This document shows, one piece after another, positions 2,731 through 43,699 of a stretch of 64,000 bases of DNA; within the stretch, counting starts at the first letter, position 1; each line of letters opens with the position of its first letter. The stretch is taken from positions 20,585-84,584 of the forward strand of contig JBJFGI010000041.1 in assembly GCA_051892535.1 (NCBI GenBank), in the 5' to 3' direction. A program made the translations under genes and the position numbers. The notes beneath the pieces are model-generated. The model had not been told where the DNA came from. It made no database searches and worked only from the letters and a program-made list of their open reading frames with translations. This DNA comes from Candidatus Coproplasma sp. (GTDB taxonomy: Bacteria > Bacillota > Clostridia > Christensenellales > Borkfalkiaceae).

Positions 2731-3564
2731 TTATTTGTTTAACGCTTTATCTATCTTGTCGAAGAAGTCCTGAAGATAGTTGTTCTCTATATCTTCGATT
2801 CTTCCGCTGTCGGCAAGGTTAGTGAGCTCACTGTCTACAGGCACCTTCGCTACTGCAGGAATGTTATACTCAAGTGCGAGGGCGTCTGCCTTGCTGTCGC
2901 CGAAGATGCTGATCTTTCTTCCGCAGTCGGGGCAGGTGATGTAGGACATATTCTCCACGATACCTAAAATGGGTATGTTCATCATCTTCGCCATGTTGAC
3001 TGCCTTCTGAACAATCATACCCACCAAGTCCTGAGGGGTGGTGACGATTATTATACCGTCCAAAGGCAGGCTCTGGAAGATGGTTAAAGGTACGTCGCCC
3101 GTTCCGGGAGGCATATCGATAAACATTATATCTACAGCTTCCCAGATGACGTCCGTCCAGAATTGAAGGACGGTACCTGAAATGAGTGACCCCCTCCATA
3201 CTACGGGTTCGTCCTCGTGCTCCAACAGCACGTTCATACTCATAACCTGTACGCCGTACTTGGAATCGACGGGGAGTATTCCCTTTTCACTGCCCATTGC
3301 CCTATCGTGTATGCCGAACATTTTTGGTATGGAAGGACCTGTTATATCTGCATCCATCAAGGCTGCATTATATCCACGCCTCTGCGCTGAAACAGCGAGC
3401 ATTGCACTCGTCATTGATTTGCCTACGCCGCCCTTGCCTGATACGACGGCGATAACCTTTTTAACCGTGCTTAACTCGTGCGGTTTTTTCTTTAGACTCT
3501 CGGCCTTGCGTGAAGAACAACTCTCACCGCAAGACGAACAATCGTGATTACAATTTTCTGCCAT
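2731..3564 (-). CDS. Mrp/NBP35 (ApbC-like) Fe-S cluster carrier ATPase
   Basis: Walker A motif VVSGKGGVGKS, a Cys-rich N-terminus (CNHDCSSCGESC) and a C-terminal CPDC. The start is set at the ATG at 3564, which has a GGAGG SD. Confidence 0.85.
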   Translation of the reverse strand: MAENCNHDCSSCGESCSSRKAESLKKKPHELSTVKKVIAVVSGKGGVGKSMTSAMLAVSAQRRGYNAALMDADITGPSIPKMFGIHDRAMGSEKGILPVDSKYGVQVMSMNVLLEHEDEPVVWRGSLISGTVLQFWTDVIWEAVDIMFIDMPPGTGDVPLTIFQSLPLDGIIIVTTPQDLVGMIVQKAVNMAKMMNIPILGIVENMSYITCPDCGRKISIFGDSKADALALEYNIPAVAKVPVDSELTNLADSGRIEDIENNYLQDFFDKIDKALNK

Positions 3565-3646
3565 AATACCTCCGTTTTTTTGCAAGCTATATTTTAGTGT
3601 ATCACCATATAAAAGTCAAGTTATTTGTCTTAAGACAAAAATTTAC

Positions 3647-3675
3647 TTGCAATGTTTGAATTAATTTGTTATAAT
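3647..3675 (+). promoter_or_regulatory. Sigma-A type promoter for the SRP RNA gene
   Basis: TTGCAA at 3647-3652, a 17-nt spacer, then TATAAT at 3670-3675. Confidence 0.6.
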
Positions 3676-3680
3676 GCCTT

Positions 3681-3950
3681 TACCGTGCTAAGTGGGGAGT
3701 TAGCGGTGCCCTGTACCCGCAATCCGCTATAGCGGGACCGAACCGCCCCTCTCGACGACTAAAGTGGAAAGCAGTCCTTTATAAGGAGTGTTGATAACAA
3801 GGTCTTATGCAACTTTTCGCCGTGAACCGTGTCAGGATAGGGATATAGCAGCACTAAGCGGAGTGACGAGTGTGCCATAAGGTAGCCTTGTAGTAGCCAC
3901 CTGTAAAGGTAACGTTTCGGCTTTATTCGGCAAAAGGGACTGCACGGCTT
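3681..3950 (+). ncRNA. ffs: Signal recognition particle RNA, long Bacillus/Clostridium form with Alu-like domain (scRNA)
   Basis: CCCTGTACCCGCAATCCGCT matches the B. subtilis scRNA Alu-domain segment CCUGUAACCCGCAGUCCGCU. GTGTCAGG...GGGA...AGCAGCACTAAG matches the domain IV consensus GUCAGGUCCGGAAGGAAGCAGC. The 5' ACCGTGC pairs with the 3' GCACGG, and a T-run follows. There is no ORF. Confidence 0.85.
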
Positions 3951-3963
3951 TTTTTGAAAGATT

Positions 3964-3993
3964 AACCCGACTGTGTATGCAGTCGGGTTTTTA
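3964..3993 (+). terminator. Hairpin terminator downstream of the SRP RNA
   Basis: aacccgactg-tgtatg-cagtcgggtt followed by ttt. Confidence 0.6.
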
Positions 3994-4010
3994 CTTGCTT
4001 TGATAATTTT

Positions 4011-13730: not shown

Positions 13731-13964
13731 GATAGACGAAACCGCCCCATCGCTGATTGTTTTAAGCAGAAAAAATTTTGATAGACACAAAAGCAGTTTT
13801 TTTTGTATTTTTTCTGCTTAAAACCGCAAAGCGTCTTGAATAGAAGATTTTTGATCCTGCCAAGGCGAGTGGTTGCAGGCGTACACGGACGTACGTCAGG
13901 ACCGCTCAACACAGGCAGGGGCAAAAAGATACATTCAAGAAATTAGTGCTTGGAGTGGTTTTGT
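13731..13964. repeat. Copy A of a structured repeat family of about 230 nt (130-nt core at 13821-13950)
   Basis: It aligns along its whole length with 40099-40331. The core is 122/130 identical and folds into a long hairpin spanning 13834-13940. It fills the whole rlmH to M14-peptidase intergenic region, starting right after the rlmH TAG. Confidence 0.85.
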
Positions 13965-14402
13965 CTATTTATGATATTCGCTGCCGCCGTTAATCATAAA
14001 GGCTCTGTATATTTGCTCTAAGAGAATTACCCTCATCAATTGGTGGGGGAAGGTCATATCCGAAAAGGACAGTTTTAAATTTGCCTGAGCCTTTACGCTG
14101 TCGTCCAGACCGCAGGACGAGCCTATTATAAAGGTTATTTCCTTGCCGCTGTCGCACAGCGACTTAACCGTCGATGCGAGCCGTTCGCTCGAGTACTTTT
14201 CACCCTCTACGCACAGAGCTATTTTATAACCCGTACACGCCTTTAAAACGATGGGAGCCTCCTCCTTTAAACTTTTCCCCTCTGCAAGCTCTTTAATCTC
14301 CAGCTTACAAAAACGGGAGAGACGTTTGGAGTACTCGGCAATAGCCTCCCTTAAATAACCCTCTTTAATTTTACCTATACAGACGATATTGACCTTAATC
14401 AT
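13965..14402 (-). CDS. rlmH: 23S rRNA (pseudouridine1915-N3)-methyltransferase
   Basis: N-terminal IVCIGKIKEGYLREAIAEYSKRL and C-terminal PHQLMRVILLEQIYRAF are typical of RlmH. Confidence 0.9.
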   Translation of the reverse strand: MIKVNIVCIGKIKEGYLREAIAEYSKRLSRFCKLEIKELAEGKSLKEEAPIVLKACTGYKIALCVEGEKYSSERLASTVKSLCDSGKEITFIIGSSCGLDDSVKAQANLKLSFSDMTFPHQLMRVILLEQIYRAFMINGGSEYHK

Positions 14403-20485: not shown

Positions 20486-20946
20486 ACTCTATGAGGTGAG
20501 GGAAAACCCCAAACCGTTAAAACTTAATAGAAAAAAATTTCTGCTGTGTGCGTGATATGATTGATGCTTAATCCACTAAGTTATTTAAGGGAGCGGTAGT
20601 TTGCAGGAATAGGCAAGGTCTGAAACAGAATTCGGAAAGTCCGACTTTCTCTGCTCCTCCGCACCCACCTGCGAGATGCGGGTTAATACTTTTTCATACA
20701 CGGCATAAGCGGATTTTTTTATTTTGCAAATTATCTATTTGCGATTTTATTTAGTTGATTTTTAGGCTGTATTGCCGTAAAATTATATCTATATTAATAC
20801 GGTAAGCGTTTTAGCTTCTCTCTTGTGGGAGAGTAAGGCGAGAACCGACGGCGGGAGCGTACTCTTGTGAGTACGTTACCGGAGCGTAGTCTGACACAGC
20901 AAAAGCGATGTTTATCGCACAAGAATATTTAAAAGAGGTAAAGTTT

Positions 20947-24520: not shown

Positions 24521-24595
24521 GTTGACAAAACCGCCGTCCGAATGTGTTTCGGAGTTGACAAAACCGCCGTCCGAATGTGTTTCGGACGGCGGTTT
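24521..24595. repeat. Terminator-like hairpin preceded by a tandem 33-nt duplicate of its left arm
   Basis: gttgacaaaaccgccgtccgaatgtgtttcgga occurs at 24521-24553 and at 24554-24586. Only the second copy is completed by cggcggttt, giving the hairpin at 24560-24595. Confidence 0.85.
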
Positions 24596-37747: not shown

Positions 37748-39661
37748 TTACTCTTCCGAGGTACCCGTAGTTGTCGTATCTTCCGTAACGGGAGTTTCTT
37801 CTTCAGCCGTTGTATCTTCCGTAACGGAAGTTTCTTCGGTGGTTGCCGTTGTTTCTTCAACGGGTGTTGCCTCTGCGGTTGCCGTTGTCTCTTCTACGGG
37901 TGTAACTTCGGTAACTGCCGCTGCTTCTACTGCAACGGGAGTTGCTTCGGTAATTGCCGCTGTCTCTTCAACGGGAGTTGCCTCTGCGGTTGCCGTTGTC
38001 TCTTCTACGGGTGTAACTTCGGTAACTGCCGCTGCTTCTACTGCAACGGGAGTTGCTTCGGTAATTGCCGCTGTCTCTTCTTCTACGACGGGAGTTTCTT
38101 CCGCAGCTGCCGCCACCTCTTCAAAGAACTCTATGCGGAGCGAGGGAAGGCGGTAGAAAATCTTTTGAGGCTTTAACTGCCTTTCAAGCGCCTTGGGCAC
38201 GTTTGCAAGGTGGAGCGAAACGCAACCTACAAACGCCTGTCTGCCTATGCGCCTTACCGATTGAGGTATGTCTATTGCCACAAGCGATCTGCAGTTTAAA
38301 AAGGCTACTTCGCCGATATCCGTCAAGCCGTTGGGCAGGTTGATTTCACGCAGTTCATAGCAGTCTGCAAACGCCCATTCGCTGATTGATACGAGGGTTT
38401 TAGGCAATACCACCTTTTGCAGGTTTTCGCAGTGGGAGAATATACCCTCTGAAAGGGAAGTGATACTCTCGGGAATAACAATGCTTTCAAACGAAATGCA
38501 GAAGTCGAACGCCCTGCGGCTGATGGTCTTTAACGATGTGGGGAGTACAATCTCCTTTAACGCACTGCACGCCCTGAATGCGTCTGCACCGATAAATTCA
38601 AGCGAGTCGGGCAGGGTAATACTTTCAAGCGAACGGCACGAAGCGAATGCACCGTCGTCAATCATTTTCAGCGCCTGAGGCAGGTTGATTTTCGTGAGCT
38701 TATCGCACCACGAGAATGCGTTTTTGCCGATAGTGTTGAGTTCTTCGGGGAGTTCAACCGAGGTTATAGCGCAGTTAGAGAATGCGTCTGCACCGATAGA
38801 ACGGATATATACGGGCACCTTGATATCGGTTGCCGAACCGATATACTTAACCACCTTGTCCTCTTCGATTAAAAAGCCGTTGTCGTTGACGAGATTTTTA
38901 TGGGTTGCGCCTGCATCTCTATCCACCATGGGAATGATAGCCGACATTCTGTCCTCTAAGCTCTCGTCCTCGTCAATGCCGTCGAGGGTGATGTCTTCGT
39001 GAGGTCCTATCTCCTCTTCCTCTTCTTCCTCTTCTTCAACCTGCTCTTCGGGCTGTGCCTGTACGGGCTGTTCCTGTACGGGCTGCTCTTCGGAAACCTG
39101 TTCGGGTTGTTCCTCTTCCGTCTCCTGAACGGCGGATTGTTCTTCAACGACCTCTTCGGGTTCATCTTCGGGCGTGTTTTCAGGCTGGGCAGGCTGCTGT
39201 GTGGGAGCGACCTGTTGAACGATATTGTTGTTGACAATTACGTAACCGCCGAAACGGCCGACTGCGTCGAACATATCCTCGTCCCTTATTCCCGAACTTA
39301 AGTATGCGTCTACCGTGTCGAAGTAGTCGGAATAATCCTCGTCCTCCGCAGGTGCGTCGGGGGAGGCGTAAAAACGGAAATAGATATTTGCGTTTTCAGG
39401 GAACACCTTGCCGCCCTTTGCCCTTGCAAAAAGTCTGCCGGGAAGCGTGACGTCCTCTAAATTGTCACACCCGAAAAACGCCCCTTTGCCTATTGAAAGA
39501 AGCTTGTAGGGAAGGACTACCTTCCTTAAAGTTTTACAGCCGGCAAAGGCGAACGGCGCAATACGCAAAACGTCCTTGGGCAAAACAAGTTCTTCCGCCT
39601 TGCCCGTATACCTTAACACCGTAGCCTTTTCAATACGTAATCCGTTAATGTTTTCAGCCAT
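37748..39661 (-). CDS. BspA-type leucine-rich repeat protein with an acidic linker and T/E/A/V-rich C-terminal tandem repeats
   Basis: Repeated units of the form I...AF..C..L..I.LP in two blocks. A poly-E/Q/P linker separates them, and the C-terminus contains 37-aa tandem repeats. I see no signal peptide. Confidence 0.7.
   Translation of the reverse strand: MAENINGLRIEKATVLRYTGKAEELVLPKDVLRIAPFAFAGCKTLRKVVLPYKLLSIGKGAFFGCDNLEDVTLPGRLFARAKGGKVFPENANIYFRFYASPDAPAEDEDYSDYFDTVDAYLSSGIRDEDMFDAVGRFGGYVIVNNNIVQQVAPTQQPAQPENTPEDEPEEVVEEQSAVQETEEEQPEQVSEEQPVQEQPVQAQPEEQVEEEEEEEEEIGPHEDITLDGIDEDESLEDRMSAIIPMVDRDAGATHKNLVNDNGFLIEEDKVVKYIGSATDIKVPVYIRSIGADAFSNCAITSVELPEELNTIGKNAFSWCDKLTKINLPQALKMIDDGAFASCRSLESITLPDSLEFIGADAFRACSALKEIVLPTSLKTISRRAFDFCISFESIVIPESITSLSEGIFSHCENLQKVVLPKTLVSISEWAFADCYELREINLPNGLTDIGEVAFLNCRSLVAIDIPQSVRRIGRQAFVGCVSLHLANVPKALERQLKPQKIFYRLPSLRIEFFEEVAAAAEETPVVEEETAAITEATPVAVEAAAVTEVTPVEETTATAEATPVEETAAITEATPVAVEAAAVTEVTPVEETTATAEATPVEETTATTEETSVTEDTTAEEETPVTEDTTTTGTSEE
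37841..38085. repeat. Tandem 111-bp (37-codon) repeat, about 2.3 units, inside the LRR protein gene
   Basis: The units start at 37878 and 37989 and are identical over the first 96 nt or so. A partial unit begins at 37841. A separate 36-bp repeat lies at about 37775-37845. Confidence 0.9.
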
Positions 39662-39756: not shown

Positions 39757-39798
39757 TAAAAAAGTAGGCACTAAACGCTTTTTTTACGTTTAGTGCCC
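39757..39798 (-). terminator. Rho-independent terminator of the pfl operon
   Basis: The minus strand reads ggcactaaacg-taaaaaaag-cgtttagtgcc followed by tactttttt. Confidence 0.8.
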
Positions 39799-39834: not shown

Positions 39835-40065
39835 TTACAAGCTCTCGTGAATGGTACGGGAGATAACCTCGTCCTGCTGTTCCTTTGTGAGCTTGTTGAA
39901 GTTTACCGCATAGCCCGATACCCTGATAGTGAGCTGAGGATACTTTTCGGGGTGTGCCTGTGCGTCGAGAAGGGTCTCCCTGTTGAAGACGTTGACGTTT
40001 AAATGATGACCGCCGTCTGCTACGTATGCGTCCAACATCGTTACTAAATTATCTGCTCTTGACAT
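39835..40065 (-). CDS. Glycyl-radical domain polypeptide (C-terminal 76 aa of pyruvate formate-lyase, GrcA-like) encoded as a separate ORF
   Basis: [45 protein letters not shown] is collinear with the E. coli PflB and GrcA C-termini and includes the radical glycine motif RVSGYAV. Its own AAGGAG SD lies 7 nt upstream of the ATG. Confidence 0.85.
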
Positions 40066-40331
40066 ATCTGTTTTCTCCTTTTTGTTATTTTGTGTTGGTA
40101 GATGGAATTGCCCTTATCGCTAATTGTTTTAAACAAAAAATTCTTTGCTGAATTTATGGACAATTGTATTTGTAAATTTTTTGCTTTAAACCGCAAAGCG
40201 TCTTGAATAGAAGATTTTTGTTCCTGCCAAGGCGAGTGGTTGCAGGCGTACACGGACGTACGTCAAAACCGCTCAACGCCTGCAGGGGCGAAAAGATATA
40301 TTCAAGAAATTAGTGCTGAGGGTAATTTCGT
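40066..40331. repeat. Copy B of the structured repeat family, forming the 266-nt spacer that splits pflB (130-nt core at 40188-40317)
   Basis: It is homologous to 13731-13964. The core is 122/130 identical, and a second hairpin and a further block are also shared. It starts directly after the TAG that ends the 676-aa ORF. Confidence 0.85.
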
Positions 40332-42362
40332 CTACTCGTCTTTGCCTAAGCTTGCAGGGGTTACCGAGAAGGTGTTGGAAATGCCGTCTCTGCTGTATTC
40401 GTAGGGCAGTTTTGCAACCGACTCCAGCGAAGCCAGAGCGCCGTTCGTATCCCTGCCGTGCATGGGGTTGGCACCGGGGGCTAAGGGGGTTCCCGCCCTT
40501 CTTCCGTCGGGGGTGTTGCCCGTCTTTTTGCCGTAGACTACGTTGGAGGTAATTGTCAGAATCGAAGTCGTGGGAATGGAGTTGCGGTAGGTATAGTGGC
40601 TTGATATCTTGCTCATAAAGGTCTTGACCAGCCATACCGCTATATCGTCCGCCCTGTCGTCGTTGTTGCCGTACTTGGGGAAGTCGCCTTCCGTCCTGAA
40701 ATCAACTACCAACCCGTCCTCGTTGCGGATGGGATATACCTTGGCGTACTTGATTGCGGAGAGCGAGTCGACCGCACAGCTTAAGCCTGCTATACCCGTT
40801 GCAAAGAAACGGCGTACGTTGGTGTCGTGCAGCGCCATTTCAAGCGCCTCGTAGGAATATTTATCGTGCATATAGTGTATGAGATTTAATGTGTTGACGT
40901 ATAGACCTGCAAGCCAATCCATCATCTGCTCGTACTTCTCTATTACGTCCGCATAATCGAGGGCGCCGTCGCCTGTGATAGGTGCGTATTTGGGGGATAC
41001 TTGCAGGGGTTTGCCCGTCTTTTTGTCACGGGTGAGCTCGTCTGCGCCGCCGTTGATTGCATATAAAAGGCACTTTGCAAGGTTAGCCCTTGCGCCGAAG
41101 AACTGCATGTCTTTACCCACTCTCATACAGCTTACGCAGCAGGCTATGCAGTAGTCGTCACCCATCTCGGGTCTCATCAAATCGTCGCTCTCGTACTGAA
41201 TCGCAGACGTTTCGATAGACGTCTCTGCGCAGAATTTCTTAAATGCGTAGGGCAGATTTTTAGACCAGAGGACGGTGAGGTTGGGCTCGGGTGCAGGACC
41301 TAAATTTTTTAAGGTGTGGAGAATTCTGAATGAACTCTTGGTGACCAACGTTCTGCCGTCTATACCCATACCGCCGATTGACTCGGTTACCCAGGTGGGA
41401 TCGCCTGAGAACAGCTCGTTGTAGTCCTTGATACGCATAAACTTAACAATCCTCAGCTTCATTACGAAGTGGTCGATAAGCTCCTGCGCCTCTACTTCGG
41501 TTAACCTGCCCTCCTTTATATCCCTTTCGATATAGATGTCGAGGAAGGTGGAGTTTCTGCCGATGGACATCGCTGCGCCGTTCTGATCCTTGACCGCACC
41601 GAGATAGCCGAAGTACAGCGCCTGAATAGCCTCCTGTGCGGTGCGTGCAGGCTTGGAGATATCCTTGCCGTAGATCTGCGCCATCTCCTTTAAGGCTTTA
41701 AGGGCTTTAATCTGGTCGGAGAGCTCCTCCCTGTCCCTTACCCTGTCGGGGGTCATATCGCCGAGCATTAACTCCTTATCGTGCTCTTTATGCTTGATAA
41801 GGTAGTCCACGCCGTAGAGGGCAACCCTTCTGTAGTCGCCTACGATTCTGCCCCTGCCGTACGTGTCGGGCAGACCGGTGAGGATATGTGCAGTACGGGC
41901 ACGGCGCATTTCGGGAGTATAGGCGTCGTACACACCGTCGTTGTGCGTCTTGCGGTACTTGGTGAATATGTCCTTGACCTCGCTGTCGAGCTCGTAGCCG
42001 TACATATTCAGCGCCTGCTCGCTCATCTTAATGCCGCCGAAGGGCTGAAGGGCACGTTTAAAGGGCTCGTCGGTCTGTAAACCGACAATCTTTTCAAGGT
42101 CTTTATCTATATACCCTGCGCCGTGGCTGGTGAGCGTGGAGATGGTTCTTACGTCGGCTTTTAATACACCGCCAGCCTCCCTCTCCTTTTTGGTAAGTTC
42201 CATAACCTCCGCCCAGAGCTTTTTAGTCGCTTCGGTGGCGTCGGCTAAAAAGCTCCCGTCGCCTTCATAGGGGGTGTAGTTGTGCTGAATAAAGTCCCTT
42301 ACGTTTACTTCGTCTTCGCTCCATTTACCGGGCGTAAAGCCCTCCCATTGTTCAAACTGCAT
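40332..42362 (-). CDS. pflB: Pyruvate formate-lyase, N-terminal 676 aa (catalytic barrel, lacks the glycyl-radical domain)
   Basis: It is collinear with PflB and contains the catalytic Cys-Cys motif (IACCVSCM). It ends ...SLGKDE-TAG, where E. coli PflB continues GKDDEVRKTNLAGL. Confidence 0.9.
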
Positions 42363-42404: not shown

Positions 42405-42680
42405 TTAACCTAATTTGGCTTCCACCCAGAGCTCTAAAATCTCCTGCGGTTGATAGCCCGAACACTGTGCTAAAATTTTGCCTTCGTCCCATAATATTAT
42501 GGAGGGAATGCGGTCTACGTTAAAATTTTTAACCTGCTCCGCATCCTCTTCAATATCAAGCTTTACGAAGTTTAAATTAAAGCTTTCGGCGACCGCTTTG
42601 CAGTTGGGCATAACCGCCAGACAGCCTACGCAACTGTCGCCGCCAATCTCTATTAAACACTTTCCCTTTAATTCTTTCAA
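42405..42680 (-). CDS. Thioredoxin-fold protein with a CVGC motif
   Basis: 91 aa with a CxxC motif at positions 17-20 and a cis-Pro-like RIPS segment, lying between pflA and pflB. Confidence 0.55.
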   Translation of the reverse strand: MKELKGKCLIEIGGDSCVGCLAVMPNCKAVAESFNLNFVKLDIEEDAEQVKNFNVDRIPSIILWDEGKILAQCSGYQPQEILELWVEAKLG

Positions 42681-42684
42681 CTCG

Positions 42685-43404
42685 TCACCTGTTGCAAAGT
42701 ATCGCCTTTGCGTTTTTTACCCTCTCCGCCGTGGGAGGCTGTACCCCCTCGAGCGGATAGCTCAGCCCAAGCTTTTCATACTTGACGACGCCCATCGTGT
42801 GGTAGGGCAGAATCTCTACCTTTTCCACCGTCTTTAAGCTTCCGATAAAATCCGAAAGGCTATATAGGTATTCGTCGTTATCGGTTATCCCCGGCACTAA
42901 TACGTGCCTTATCCACATCGGCTTGCCTATGTCGGAGAGGTGTCGGGCAAAGGCTAAGATATTTTTATTGTCCCTCTCCGTGAGGCGTTTATGCTCCTCG
43001 GGGTCGATATGCTTGATATCAAGTAAGACAAGGTCGGTATAGCTTAACAGCCCGTCTATCCCGTCTTTGTTCGCCTCGGAGAATACCGCGCCCGAAGTGT
43101 CTAACGCTGTGTGAACGCCGTTTGCCTTAAGTAAAGAAAACAGCTCCTTGACAAACTCCGTCTGAAGCAGGGGCTCGCCGCCGGAGACGGTGACTCCTCC
43201 GCCGTTTGCAAAATAGTTTTTATACCTAAGTGCGTTTTTTGCAACCTGTTCCGCCGTGTACTCCGTACCGCCGCTCACTGCCCAGGTGTCGGGGTTGTGG
43301 CAGTATTTACACCGCATAGGGCAGCCCTGCATAAACACTACGAACCTTATTCCCGGCCCGTCTACGGTGCCGAACGATTCAAACGAATGTATCCGCCCTG
43401 TCAC
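42685..43404 (-). CDS. pflA: Pyruvate formate-lyase activating enzyme (radical SAM)
   Basis: DGPGIRFVVFMQGCPMRCKYCHNPDTW and GGVTVSGGEPLLQ motifs. It has a GTG start with an AAGGGGG SD. Confidence 0.9.
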   Translation of the reverse strand: MTGRIHSFESFGTVDGPGIRFVVFMQGCPMRCKYCHNPDTWAVSGGTEYTAEQVAKNALRYKNYFANGGGVTVSGGEPLLQTEFVKELFSLLKANGVHTALDTSGAVFSEANKDGIDGLLSYTDLVLLDIKHIDPEEHKRLTERDNKNILAFARHLSDIGKPMWIRHVLVPGITDNDEYLYSLSDFIGSLKTVEKVEILPYHTMGVVKYEKLGLSYPLEGVQPPTAERVKNAKAILCNR

Positions 43405-43429
43405 TTTTTACCCCCTTAAATCACCCGTT

Positions 43430-43584
43430 AAAAAAAGGGCAATCTACTTAAATTACCTTTAAGTGATTTGCCCAGACGAACGGCTAAAAAAGGTTATCAA
43501 GACGAAAAGTCGAAAAATCCACTTTGCCTTACGCCACTCCCCTGCGGTAATTTCCGCTAATGCCTCGTCAGTTATGGCGCACCC
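43430..43584 (-). promoter_or_regulatory. ZTP (pfl-motif) riboswitch with an intrinsic-terminator expression platform
   Basis: The minus strand has P1 GCGCCA/UGGCGU, a junction UAACUGACGA, P2 GCGG-AAAUUA-CCGC, then AGGGGAG. After a linker comes CCGUUCGUCUGGGCA. For comparison, the Thermosinus aptamer as I recall it reads UGACUGGCGAA...GUGGGAAACCAC-CGGGGAG...CCGCCUGGGC. The GGGCAA is the 5' arm of a roughly 15-bp terminator followed by U7 (43430-43473), directly upstream of the pflA SD. Confidence 0.75.
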
Positions 43585-43599
43585 TTGATTTGTGAAATG

Positions 43600-43629
43600 A
43601 TTATAGCACACCCCCATTTACGTTGTCAA
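43600..43629 (-). promoter_or_regulatory. Sigma-A type promoter (extended -10) of the pfl operon
   Basis: On the minus strand, TTGACA at 43629-43624, an 18-nt spacer, then TGCTATAAT with the hexamer at 43605-43600. Confidence 0.65.
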
Positions 43630-43699
43630 TAGTTTTATATCAAAATATTGATTGAAATTTTTTACCAAAACACAACATATTGTGGTTAGGCGTAACAAT

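Follow-up and report, generated by a model that had tools for sequence, protein, structure and literature searches.

Pyruvate formate-lyase genes of the window

The pflB gene, encoding pyruvate formate-lyase (PFL), was studied in a 64-kb stretch of contig JBJFGI010000041.1 of a Candidatus Coproplasma sp.; this whole stretch is called the window. Here pflB lies in two pieces, a large open reading frame (ORF) of 676 aa with the catalytic Cys-Cys site and a small ORF of 76 aa with the radical glycine, separated by an intercistronic spacer of 266 nt (40066..40331). A preliminary description of the sequence had reported such a division directly ahead of the glycyl-radical domain, and the positions and ends of both ORFs as well as the extent of the spacer were found to be as reported. 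The split was confirmed to be real.

When aligned with E. coli PFL (PDB 1H16), residues 615-676 of the large ORF fell on residues 617-678, whereas residue 6 of the small ORF corresponded to N684, so that its residue 1 equals position 679; phmmer matched the small ORF to 1H16 residues 684-758. The split point thus is 678|679 in E. coli numbering, and junction residues were neither gained nor lost, which bears out the claim of collinearity with E. coli PflB. Additionally, residues 16-76 of the small ORF aligned with residues 67-127 of YfiD (6OWR; phmmer, E = 1e-23).

Against the formate C-acetyltransferase equivalog model TIGR01255, the large ORF scored 1082.5 bits (cutoff 994.2) over profile positions 1-663 of 744, and the adjacent catalytic cysteines (C418/C419 in E. 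coli) were kept. A PFL is expected to carry its radical glycine on the same polypeptide as the barrel; here, RVSGYAV was located solely on the 76-aa ORF. The small ORF stayed below the cutoffs of the models for spare-part proteins, with 98.8 bits for GrcA (TIGR04365, cutoff 170) and 98.3 bits for GrcA2 (cutoff 145). With the NCBIfam model NF038360 (GrcA3) the score was 156.8 bits, 1.2 short of the cutoff of 158, across profile positions 5-78 of 78, and close homologues of the small ORF carry the NCBI name GrcA. No other PFL-like locus was detected by tblastn within the window. The ribosome binding site (RBS) of the small gene, AAGGAG, is followed by the ATG after 9 nt, not 7 nt as described before.

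The surroundings of the two ORFs are those of an intact operon (Table 1): promoter, ZTP riboswitch, pflA and terminator were all in place, as the preliminary description had it. Two features came in addition, a gene for a thioredoxin (Trx)-like protein between pflA and the large pflB gene, and a repeated element that makes up most of the spacer. On the pfl strand, no terminator was predicted within the 266-nt spacer. The leader of the operon (43405..43630) contains the ZTP riboswitch in the window and at the syntenic locus L012; the likewise syntenic loci L007 and L011 have the same pfl promoter with a different leader that could not be aligned to the ZTP aptamer.

Table 1. Features of the pfl operon and copies of the repeat in the window. 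L007 to L012 are loci from other Candidatus Coproplasma assemblies that are syntenic with the window; L022 belongs to an independent metagenome-assembled genome (MAG).
Feature	Coordinates	Strand	Description
Operon promoter	43600..43629	minus	TTGACA-18-TATAAT with TG extension; 12/12 match to the sigma-70 consensus; kept in L007, L011 and L012
ZMP/ZTP riboswitch (pfl motif), operon leader	43463..43585	minus	Rfam RF01750, 47.0 bits (gathering score 39)
pflA, PFL-activating radical-SAM enzyme	42685..43404	minus	239 aa; TIGR02493, 331.9 bits (cutoff 231.75)
Thioredoxin-fold CxxC protein, between pflA and the large gene	42405..42680	minus	91 aa; weak thioredoxin matches and invariant motifs
PFL large (catalytic) chain	40332..42362	minus	676 aa; Cys-Cys site (IACCVS); ends ...SLGKDE-TAG
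MITE-like structured repeat, copy in the pfl spacer	40099..40334	minus	236 nt; starts TAGACGAAA, ends ...CCATCTA
Remaining native spacer with RBS of the small gene	40066..40098	minus	AAAGGAGAAAA..ATG block alignable with L007-L012 and L022
PFL small chain	39835..40065	minus	76 aa; starts MSRADNLV; radical glycine G51 in RVSGYAV; equals E. coli PFL 679-759
Intrinsic operon terminator	39766..39798	minus	13-bp stem, then T run
Second full copy of the repeat	13733..13967	minus	flanked by rlmH and a peptidase gene, with its TAG as rlmH stop codon; orthologous copy in L024
Third copy of the repeat, 5'-truncated, long subfamily	43687..~43927	minus	immediately follows the spoVAC stop codon and lies upstream of the pfl promoter

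Conservation of the split and selection on both chains

More than 100 sequence clusters share the split at one and the same codon, among them those of the cultured genera Amygdalobacter and Breznakia. Homologue counts refer to the best 120 matches for each of three queries, the small ORF, the large ORF and the Amygdalobacter large chain. Stand-alone proteins of 76-81 aa made up 112/120 matches of the small ORF (85-99% identity), the other 8/120 being longer calls of 90-111 aa, and the helix DNLVxMLDxYV is conserved among small chains. Among the matches of the large ORF (87-100% identity), 115/120 lacked RVSGY and ended with ...LGK[DE][DE]; the same was true for 120/120 matches of the Amygdalobacter chain. 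The ACCVS site was kept in 119/120 and 120/120 of these homologues, respectively. When representatives at 50% identity were searched exhaustively with the small ORF, the matches were largely fragments of odd length, which makes this search unsuited to judging the distribution.

The gene order pflA, Trx-like, large and small chain recurred at L001-L003, L007-L012, L028-L033, L039 and L040. At L001-L003 and L028-L033 a large chain of 675-677 aa is followed, after a short gap, by a small chain of 76-78 aa, with otherwise different surrounding genes. At the syntenic Coproplasma loci L007-L012 the gap measures 21-46 nt and runs from the stop codon through a few bases and AAAGGAGAAAA to the ATG. The two cultured representatives, which belong to different classes, have 666 + 77 aa with a 56-nt gap (Amygdalobacter nucleatus, L039) and 668 + 77 aa with a 15-nt gap (Breznakia pachnodae, L040). 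The arrangement of the window, long spacer included, was also present in the independent MAG LOHA07_bin.016 (L022, JBJEVD010000048.1), which rules out the assembly artefact that had to be considered at the outset.

The position of the split is conserved in the relatives, though the spacer sequence is not. Spacers of 15, 20, 21, 27, 30, 40, 46, 56, 86, 266, 295 and 601 nt were recorded among the split loci, those of close relatives measuring just 15-46 nt. All three reading frames are represented, in-frame stops occur, and the sequences show no relation to each other. A Shine-Dalgarno (SD)-like motif preceded the ATG of the small gene in every spacer sequence that was read (all except L039 and L040).

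Individual spacers had features of their own. The 86-nt spacer of L028 holds a perfect TTGACA-17-TATAAT promoter (3934..3962, 12/12), which suggests that the small radical gene can be expressed separately. In the closely related genomes of L030 and L031, the spacers (295 nt, 3706..4000, and 601 nt, 3400..4000) are full of GC-rich palindromic repeat units and differ by two large indels; the intercistronic site of PFL seems to gather insertions in several lineages. Separately, a 77-aa GrcA3-like gene (P0108, 342 member sequences; 5001..5234 in L004-L006) was found beside ABC-transporter genes, and the 5 kb to each side of it held no PFL gene. Judged by this locus, some genomes keep the small chain unlinked from PFL.

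Both chains are under strong purifying selection. The dN/dS ratio of the small ORF was 0.011-0.049 in comparisons with estimable dS (0.9-2.0), and that of the large ORF 0.03-0.10. Between the window and L022, which both bear the repeat, the small ORF had a dN/dS of 0.014 at a dS of 0.40, so the small gene stayed constrained after the insertion; in the same comparison the flanking genes had a dS of 0.40-0.52 and the repeat element differed by 6.3%. Together with the recurrence of the split in more than 100 clusters, the low ratios of the small ORF (0.01-0.05) uphold the earlier view that this is not a decaying locus.

Fused forms do exist. Among the best 120 matches of the large ORF, five are 750-753 aa long, with junctions such as GKDD-ISTRAD-NLV, and in a neighbour-joining tree they are scattered among split forms, from which it follows that the split state is evolutionarily labile. 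Conversion between the split and fused states, or replacement of the module, has thus occurred more than once. The Trx-like gene was present in every split module examined (window, L001, L007-L012, L028, L030, L032, L039 and L040) and missing from 3/3 fused loci examined (L034, L036 and L038), which are syntenic with the window. Its products measure 90-112 aa and share, across seven lineages, the invariant C17xxC20, cis-Pro59 and G[YF]QPxEI. The Trx-like protein may have a role in the split PFL; that its gene accompanies split but not fused loci provides a concrete, testable lead.

The repeat in the spacer

Of the 266-nt spacer region, 236 nt are accounted for by a repeat whose TAG (40332..40334) is at the same time the stop codon of the large ORF. 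We classify the insert as a structured intergenic repeat that resembles a miniature inverted-repeat transposable element (MITE), so far seen only in Candidatus Coproplasma MAGs in one genome scan. The window contains three copies, and an exact 20-mer scan of a one-genome-per-species collection yielded 15 further loci (L013-L027), all in Candidatus Coproplasma MAGs, one of which has nine. The length of most copies is 233-335 nt; they start with TAGACGAAAC... and end with ...GTTTCGTCTA. Terminal inverted repeats of ~25-30 nt (TAGACGAAAC...CTAA and its complement) were present in all full copies, and TA, a possible target-site duplication, stood at both ends of nearly all copies, where it is inseparable from the inverted repeat. 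A core of ~130 nt is nearly invariant; the termini differ between copies yet co-vary.

A fold of 77 pairs on the strand complementary to the pfl mRNA fits 15 copies. In this fold 95.5% of cells were paired (helix 1: 96%) compared with 40-48% in slid controls, and 25 compensated pairs were counted vs 11.5 +/- 2.3 in shuffles, none of 500 of which reached the observed value. The minimum free energy of the spacer copy was -97.1 kcal/mol on the plus strand of the window vs -60.4 kcal/mol on the pfl-sense strand. The strand complementary to the pfl mRNA, or its counterpart elsewhere, folded better in 13/15 copies; one strand folds better by 20-35 kcal/mol because several of the conserved pairs are G.U. 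In most loci, the better-folding strand is antisense to the flanking genes. A weak promoter-like site within the repeat (40190..40163, 9/12) was not kept in other copies.

Presence of the element is polymorphic. Among the pfl spacers compared, only those of the window and L022 hold it ('filled') and those of L007-L012 do not ('empty'); the site between spoVAC and pflA is occupied in the window and free in L007, L011 and L012. Ordinary intergenic DNA also harbours the repeat, which separates rlmH from a peptidase gene and uvrB from uvrA. At three independent sites its first three bases (TAG) form the stop codon of the upstream gene, namely rlmH (13965..13967), the large pflB gene (40332..40334) and uvrB (L019, 4364..4366); in L014 and L018 it starts 2 nt past the stop codon. 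This suggests that the repeat targets, or is selected at, stop-codon-proximal TA sites. Pre-insertion sequences reconstructed under a TA-flank model regenerated no stop codon for either rlmH or pflB, and none of the closely related empty sites could be aligned over the junction.

Since the repeat-free relatives L007-L012 are already split, the comparison indicates that the insertion is secondary: it post-dates the split of PFL and did not cause it. The element itself is, by its divergence of 6.3% against a dS of 0.40-0.52 in the flanking genes, constrained or homogenised.

No Rfam match to the repeat was obtained, neither over the whole window nor with the permissive setting of E <= 10 in 39980..40420, and blastn against plasmid and phage collections gave no match. 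A cognate transposase was not identified within the window, to which the search was confined. The repeat was also considered as an integron attC-like or an IS200/IS605-like single-strand element; the core motifs did not fit. Structured intergenic MITEs such as ERIC, Correia/NEMIS and RUP resemble the insert, which is short (~236-335 nt), non-coding and multi-copy, has terminal inverted repeats, TA ends and a strand-asymmetric fold of RNA type with G.U pairs, and occupies intergenic, often transcribed sites with presence/absence polymorphism. The insert differs in its lack of similarity to Rfam families and to plasmid or phage records, and in its termini, which are variable yet co-vary while the ~130-nt core is most conserved. 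This repeat is a candidate for a novel family of mobile structured RNAs or MITEs.

Other observations in the window concern different features. At 24521..24586 there is a perfect 33-nt tandem duplication, GTTGACAAAACCGCCGTCCGAATGTGTTTCGGA twice, each unit containing a hairpin, with an inverted copy behind the two units at 24570..24595. On the minus strand, 37748..39661 encodes a 637-aa protein with an acidic low-complexity middle and a C-terminal tail of 36-39-nt tandem repeats (TPVEETTATAEA-like units); it probably corresponds to the LRR_5 surface protein encoded at this position in L011, and its counterparts in L007-L012 measure 511 to 536 aa. The large bacterial signal recognition particle RNA (3683..3947, plus strand, 178 bits) and 6S RNA (20535..20719, plus strand, 65 bits) are ordinary housekeeping RNAs.

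A probable two-chain PFL and its alternatives

Altogether, the locus very probably represents a naturally split, two-chain PFL in a conserved four-gene module, in which the wide gap between the two pieces results from a later insertion of the repeat. A constitutively two-piece PFL had been the interpretation favoured from the start, and comparative support for it is strong (same codon, cultured genera, purifying selection). The 676-aa chain would fold as an incomplete nine-stranded barrel that holds the Cys-Cys pair and lacks the last strand and the glycine finger. The 76-aa chain, made from its own RBS, would supply an N-terminal helix, the last strand, the RVSG(51)YAV loop and the C-terminal helix. 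PflA would set the radical on G51 of the small chain, which would dock into the large chain and complete the active site. Oxygen damage would then destroy the small chain alone, and this chain could be replaced, as in the 'cheap replaceable subunit' mechanism of the preliminary description. The gene arrangement points to an enzyme that may obligately work with two chains; assembly of the heteromer, activation of the free small chain and replaceability of the latter are predictions of the same kind. The repeat entered an originally short spacer between stop codon and RBS, and now provides the TAG stop of the large gene.

Several points weigh against this interpretation. Only 64 kb of the genome are in view, and a full-length pflB may be present elsewhere. 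P0108, a 77-aa homologue of the small chain, sits away from any PFL gene, and the five fused close homologues are scattered among the split forms. Truncated E. coli PFL binds YfiD weakly and is poorly activated (PMC8683613); efficient assembly of the two chains here is an assumption. Finally, the structured insert of 236 nt might, in this particular genome, reduce translation of the small chain or uncouple it.

The alternative that survives best, although we regard it as unlikely, takes the small ORF for a GrcA/YfiD-type spare part that serves a full-length PFL encoded elsewhere, with the 676-aa protein as an inactive or differently functioning remnant. It would agree with the NCBI names of such proteins ('autonomous glycyl radical cofactor GrcA' or GrcA3), with the unlinked 77-aa homologue of L004-L006, and with the remaining genome being outside our view. 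A remnant would, however, hardly be expected from a large chain that is as strongly constrained as described above, that keeps the Cys-Cys site in nearly all homologues and that passes the PFL equivalog cutoff. Moreover, the large chain shares one operon with the small gene and pflA at every split locus seen, across classes, and the small chain begins exactly where the large chain ends, without the 60-residue N-terminus of YfiD.

Recent pseudogenisation, in which insertion of the repeat broke an intact pflB that has been decaying since, is considerably less probable. The preliminary description had named insertional disruption as an alternative, and in part this holds: the spacer does contain a mobile-element-like insertion of 236 nt that supplies the TAG stop of the large ORF, and fused versions of 750-753 aa occur in close relatives. 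The insertion is nevertheless later than the split and not its cause, as repeat-free relatives already have stop, RBS and ATG at the same position. The split is further found across classes, and the small ORF remained constrained after the insertion.

Even less credence is given to removal or bypass of the spacer, be it by a self-splicing intron, translational bypassing, readthrough or frameshifting, that would yield a single 752-aa PFL. A group I intron is present in the glycyl-radical gene nrdD of phage T4, both ORFs are exactly collinear with an intact PFL, and the spacer RNA is structured (-65 kcal/mol, z = -2.6); yet no Rfam intron or ribozyme matched the spacer even at E <= 10, and the same element resides in plain intergenic DNA (rlmH/peptidase gene, uvrB/uvrA). 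Alleles without the element have a stop, an SD motif and an ATG, with no continuous ORF. A conserved intron, readthrough and frameshifting are excluded because the orthologous spacers (15-601 nt, with in-frame stops) span all frames, are unrelated in sequence and provide their own SD and ATG; RNA-level removal of the spacer, raised as a possibility in the preliminary description, can be set aside on the same grounds. An assembly or binning artefact is the most improbable of all: the window does match a MAG (P0121, 100% identity, Candidatus Coproplasma sp.), but the independent MAG of L022 has the same structure with 6% divergence of the element, and dozens of independent assemblies as well as isolate genomes show the split. 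The pseudogene, intron or recoding, and artefact explanations are thereby effectively excluded.

The split PFL favoured here has to be distinguished from known systems. E. coli YfiD/GrcA, like Y06I of phage T4, is a small separate polypeptide with RVSGYAV that is homologous to the C-terminus of PFL, and such a polypeptide can in principle be activated by the PFL-activating enzyme (PFL-AE) and complete a loop-less PFL (PMC8683613, PMC13450708). Residues 61-127 of YfiD mimic PFL residues 693-759, comprising strand beta-10, the glycine loop and the C-terminal helix (PMC8683613), and free YfiD is activated by PFL-AE (PMC8683613, PMC13450708). However, the 127-aa YfiD begins with a disordered region of 60 residues, its gene is not linked to pflB, and it stands in for a full-length PFL once oxygen has cleaved the latter. 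The small chain of the window, in contrast, has 76 aa, is encoded in the same operon, starts where the large chain stops and keeps the helix of residues 679-695; in place of the ~60-residue region by which YfiD binds cleaved PFL, its own N-terminus equals PFL 679-695. Its PFL partner is without a radical domain, in the window and at all split loci seen, whereas that of YfiD is full-length. The name GrcA3 implies a spare part, not an obligate subunit.

Closer to the natural split is the engineered pair of truncated PFL (tPFL, residues 1-695) and YfiD (Andorfer et al. 2021, PMC8683613), in which a chain without beta-10 and glycine loop is likewise complemented in trans. Once activated, PFL truncated at 695 reached wild-type activity with YfiD (PMC8683613). 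This pair is artificial, was cut 17 residues further downstream and suffers from poor binding and activation; in the natural split those 17 residues reside on the small chain, and a thioredoxin-like partner gene is present. 4-Hydroxyphenylacetate decarboxylase and benzylsuccinate synthase also combine a large chain with small accessory chains. In these enzymes it is the large chain that bears the radical glycine, and Fe-S or regulatory proteins of other descent serve as small subunits (PMC13450708), while the small chain of the split PFL is the radical domain itself.

That the arrangement had not been described was the impression at the outset, and it stands with respect to publications only. 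No paper on a natural split PFL or on GrcA3 was found in full-text literature searches; a 2026 review of the field discusses E. coli YfiD as the sole spare part (PMC13450708), and a 2025 review places spare parts in 'some facultative anaerobes' (PMC12288474). Databases, on the other hand, hold both a curated NCBIfam model, NF038360 ('autonomous glycyl radical cofactor GrcA3', 78 positions), and the 2026 PDB entry 38la with a natural Amygdalobacter large chain. Chain 38la_A (687 aa, 'Formate acetyltransferase') aligns up to one residue short of the last residue of the large ORF; its residues 23-686 match P0390, a natural protein of 666 aa, at 100% identity and the A. nucleatus protein at 99%, the ~20 extra N-terminal residues presumably being an expression tag. 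At the C-terminus, chain 38lb_A (739 aa) continues for another 52 residues that are unrelated to the radical domain, and neither 38la nor 38lb contains a radical-domain chain. In some homologues of chain 38la_A, the sequence closes with a tail that contains Cys (...CEGTCK, ...CESNLG). Both entries are recent, since they are absent from the Foldseek copy of the PDB dated 2026-04-08; searching that copy with an AlphaFold2 model of the large chain (24-sequence alignment; pLDDT, the predicted local distance difference test, 50.7, which is poor, so that the model served as query only) retrieved E. coli PFL. The split PFL is widespread and recorded in databases, and, as far as we could find, unpublished as a two-chain enzyme.

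More tentatively, and with somewhat less than even confidence, the split modules (PflA, Trx-like CxxC protein, catalytic chain of 665-677 aa and radical chain of 76-78 aa) might constitute a distinct and widespread class of obligately heteromeric glycyl radical enzymes in strict anaerobes, with a radical domain that is consumable or exchangeable and activated off the enzyme, and with a Trx-like protein specific to assembly, redox protection or radical control. Separately, and at the same level of confidence, the insert might represent a previously undescribed family of mobile structured RNAs, in which the functional strand would be the one complementary to the pfl mRNA.

Glycyl radical enzymes have to swing a buried radical domain out of the barrel to give the activase access, and oxygen cleavage at the glycine costs them the whole ~85-kDa protein. 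A separate 76-aa radical domain, if true, would provide a native system for studies of activation, docking and repair, for which engineered truncations and the rescue by E. coli YfiD are the existing alternatives. Anaerobes of the gut and vagina, among them Coproplasma, Amygdalobacter (BVAB2) and Erysipelotrichaceae, commonly have the split arrangement, and this bears on the annotation and counting of PFL and 'GrcA' genes in metabolic reconstructions of microbiomes, where the truncated PFLs may be labelled as pseudogenes and the small chains as spare parts.

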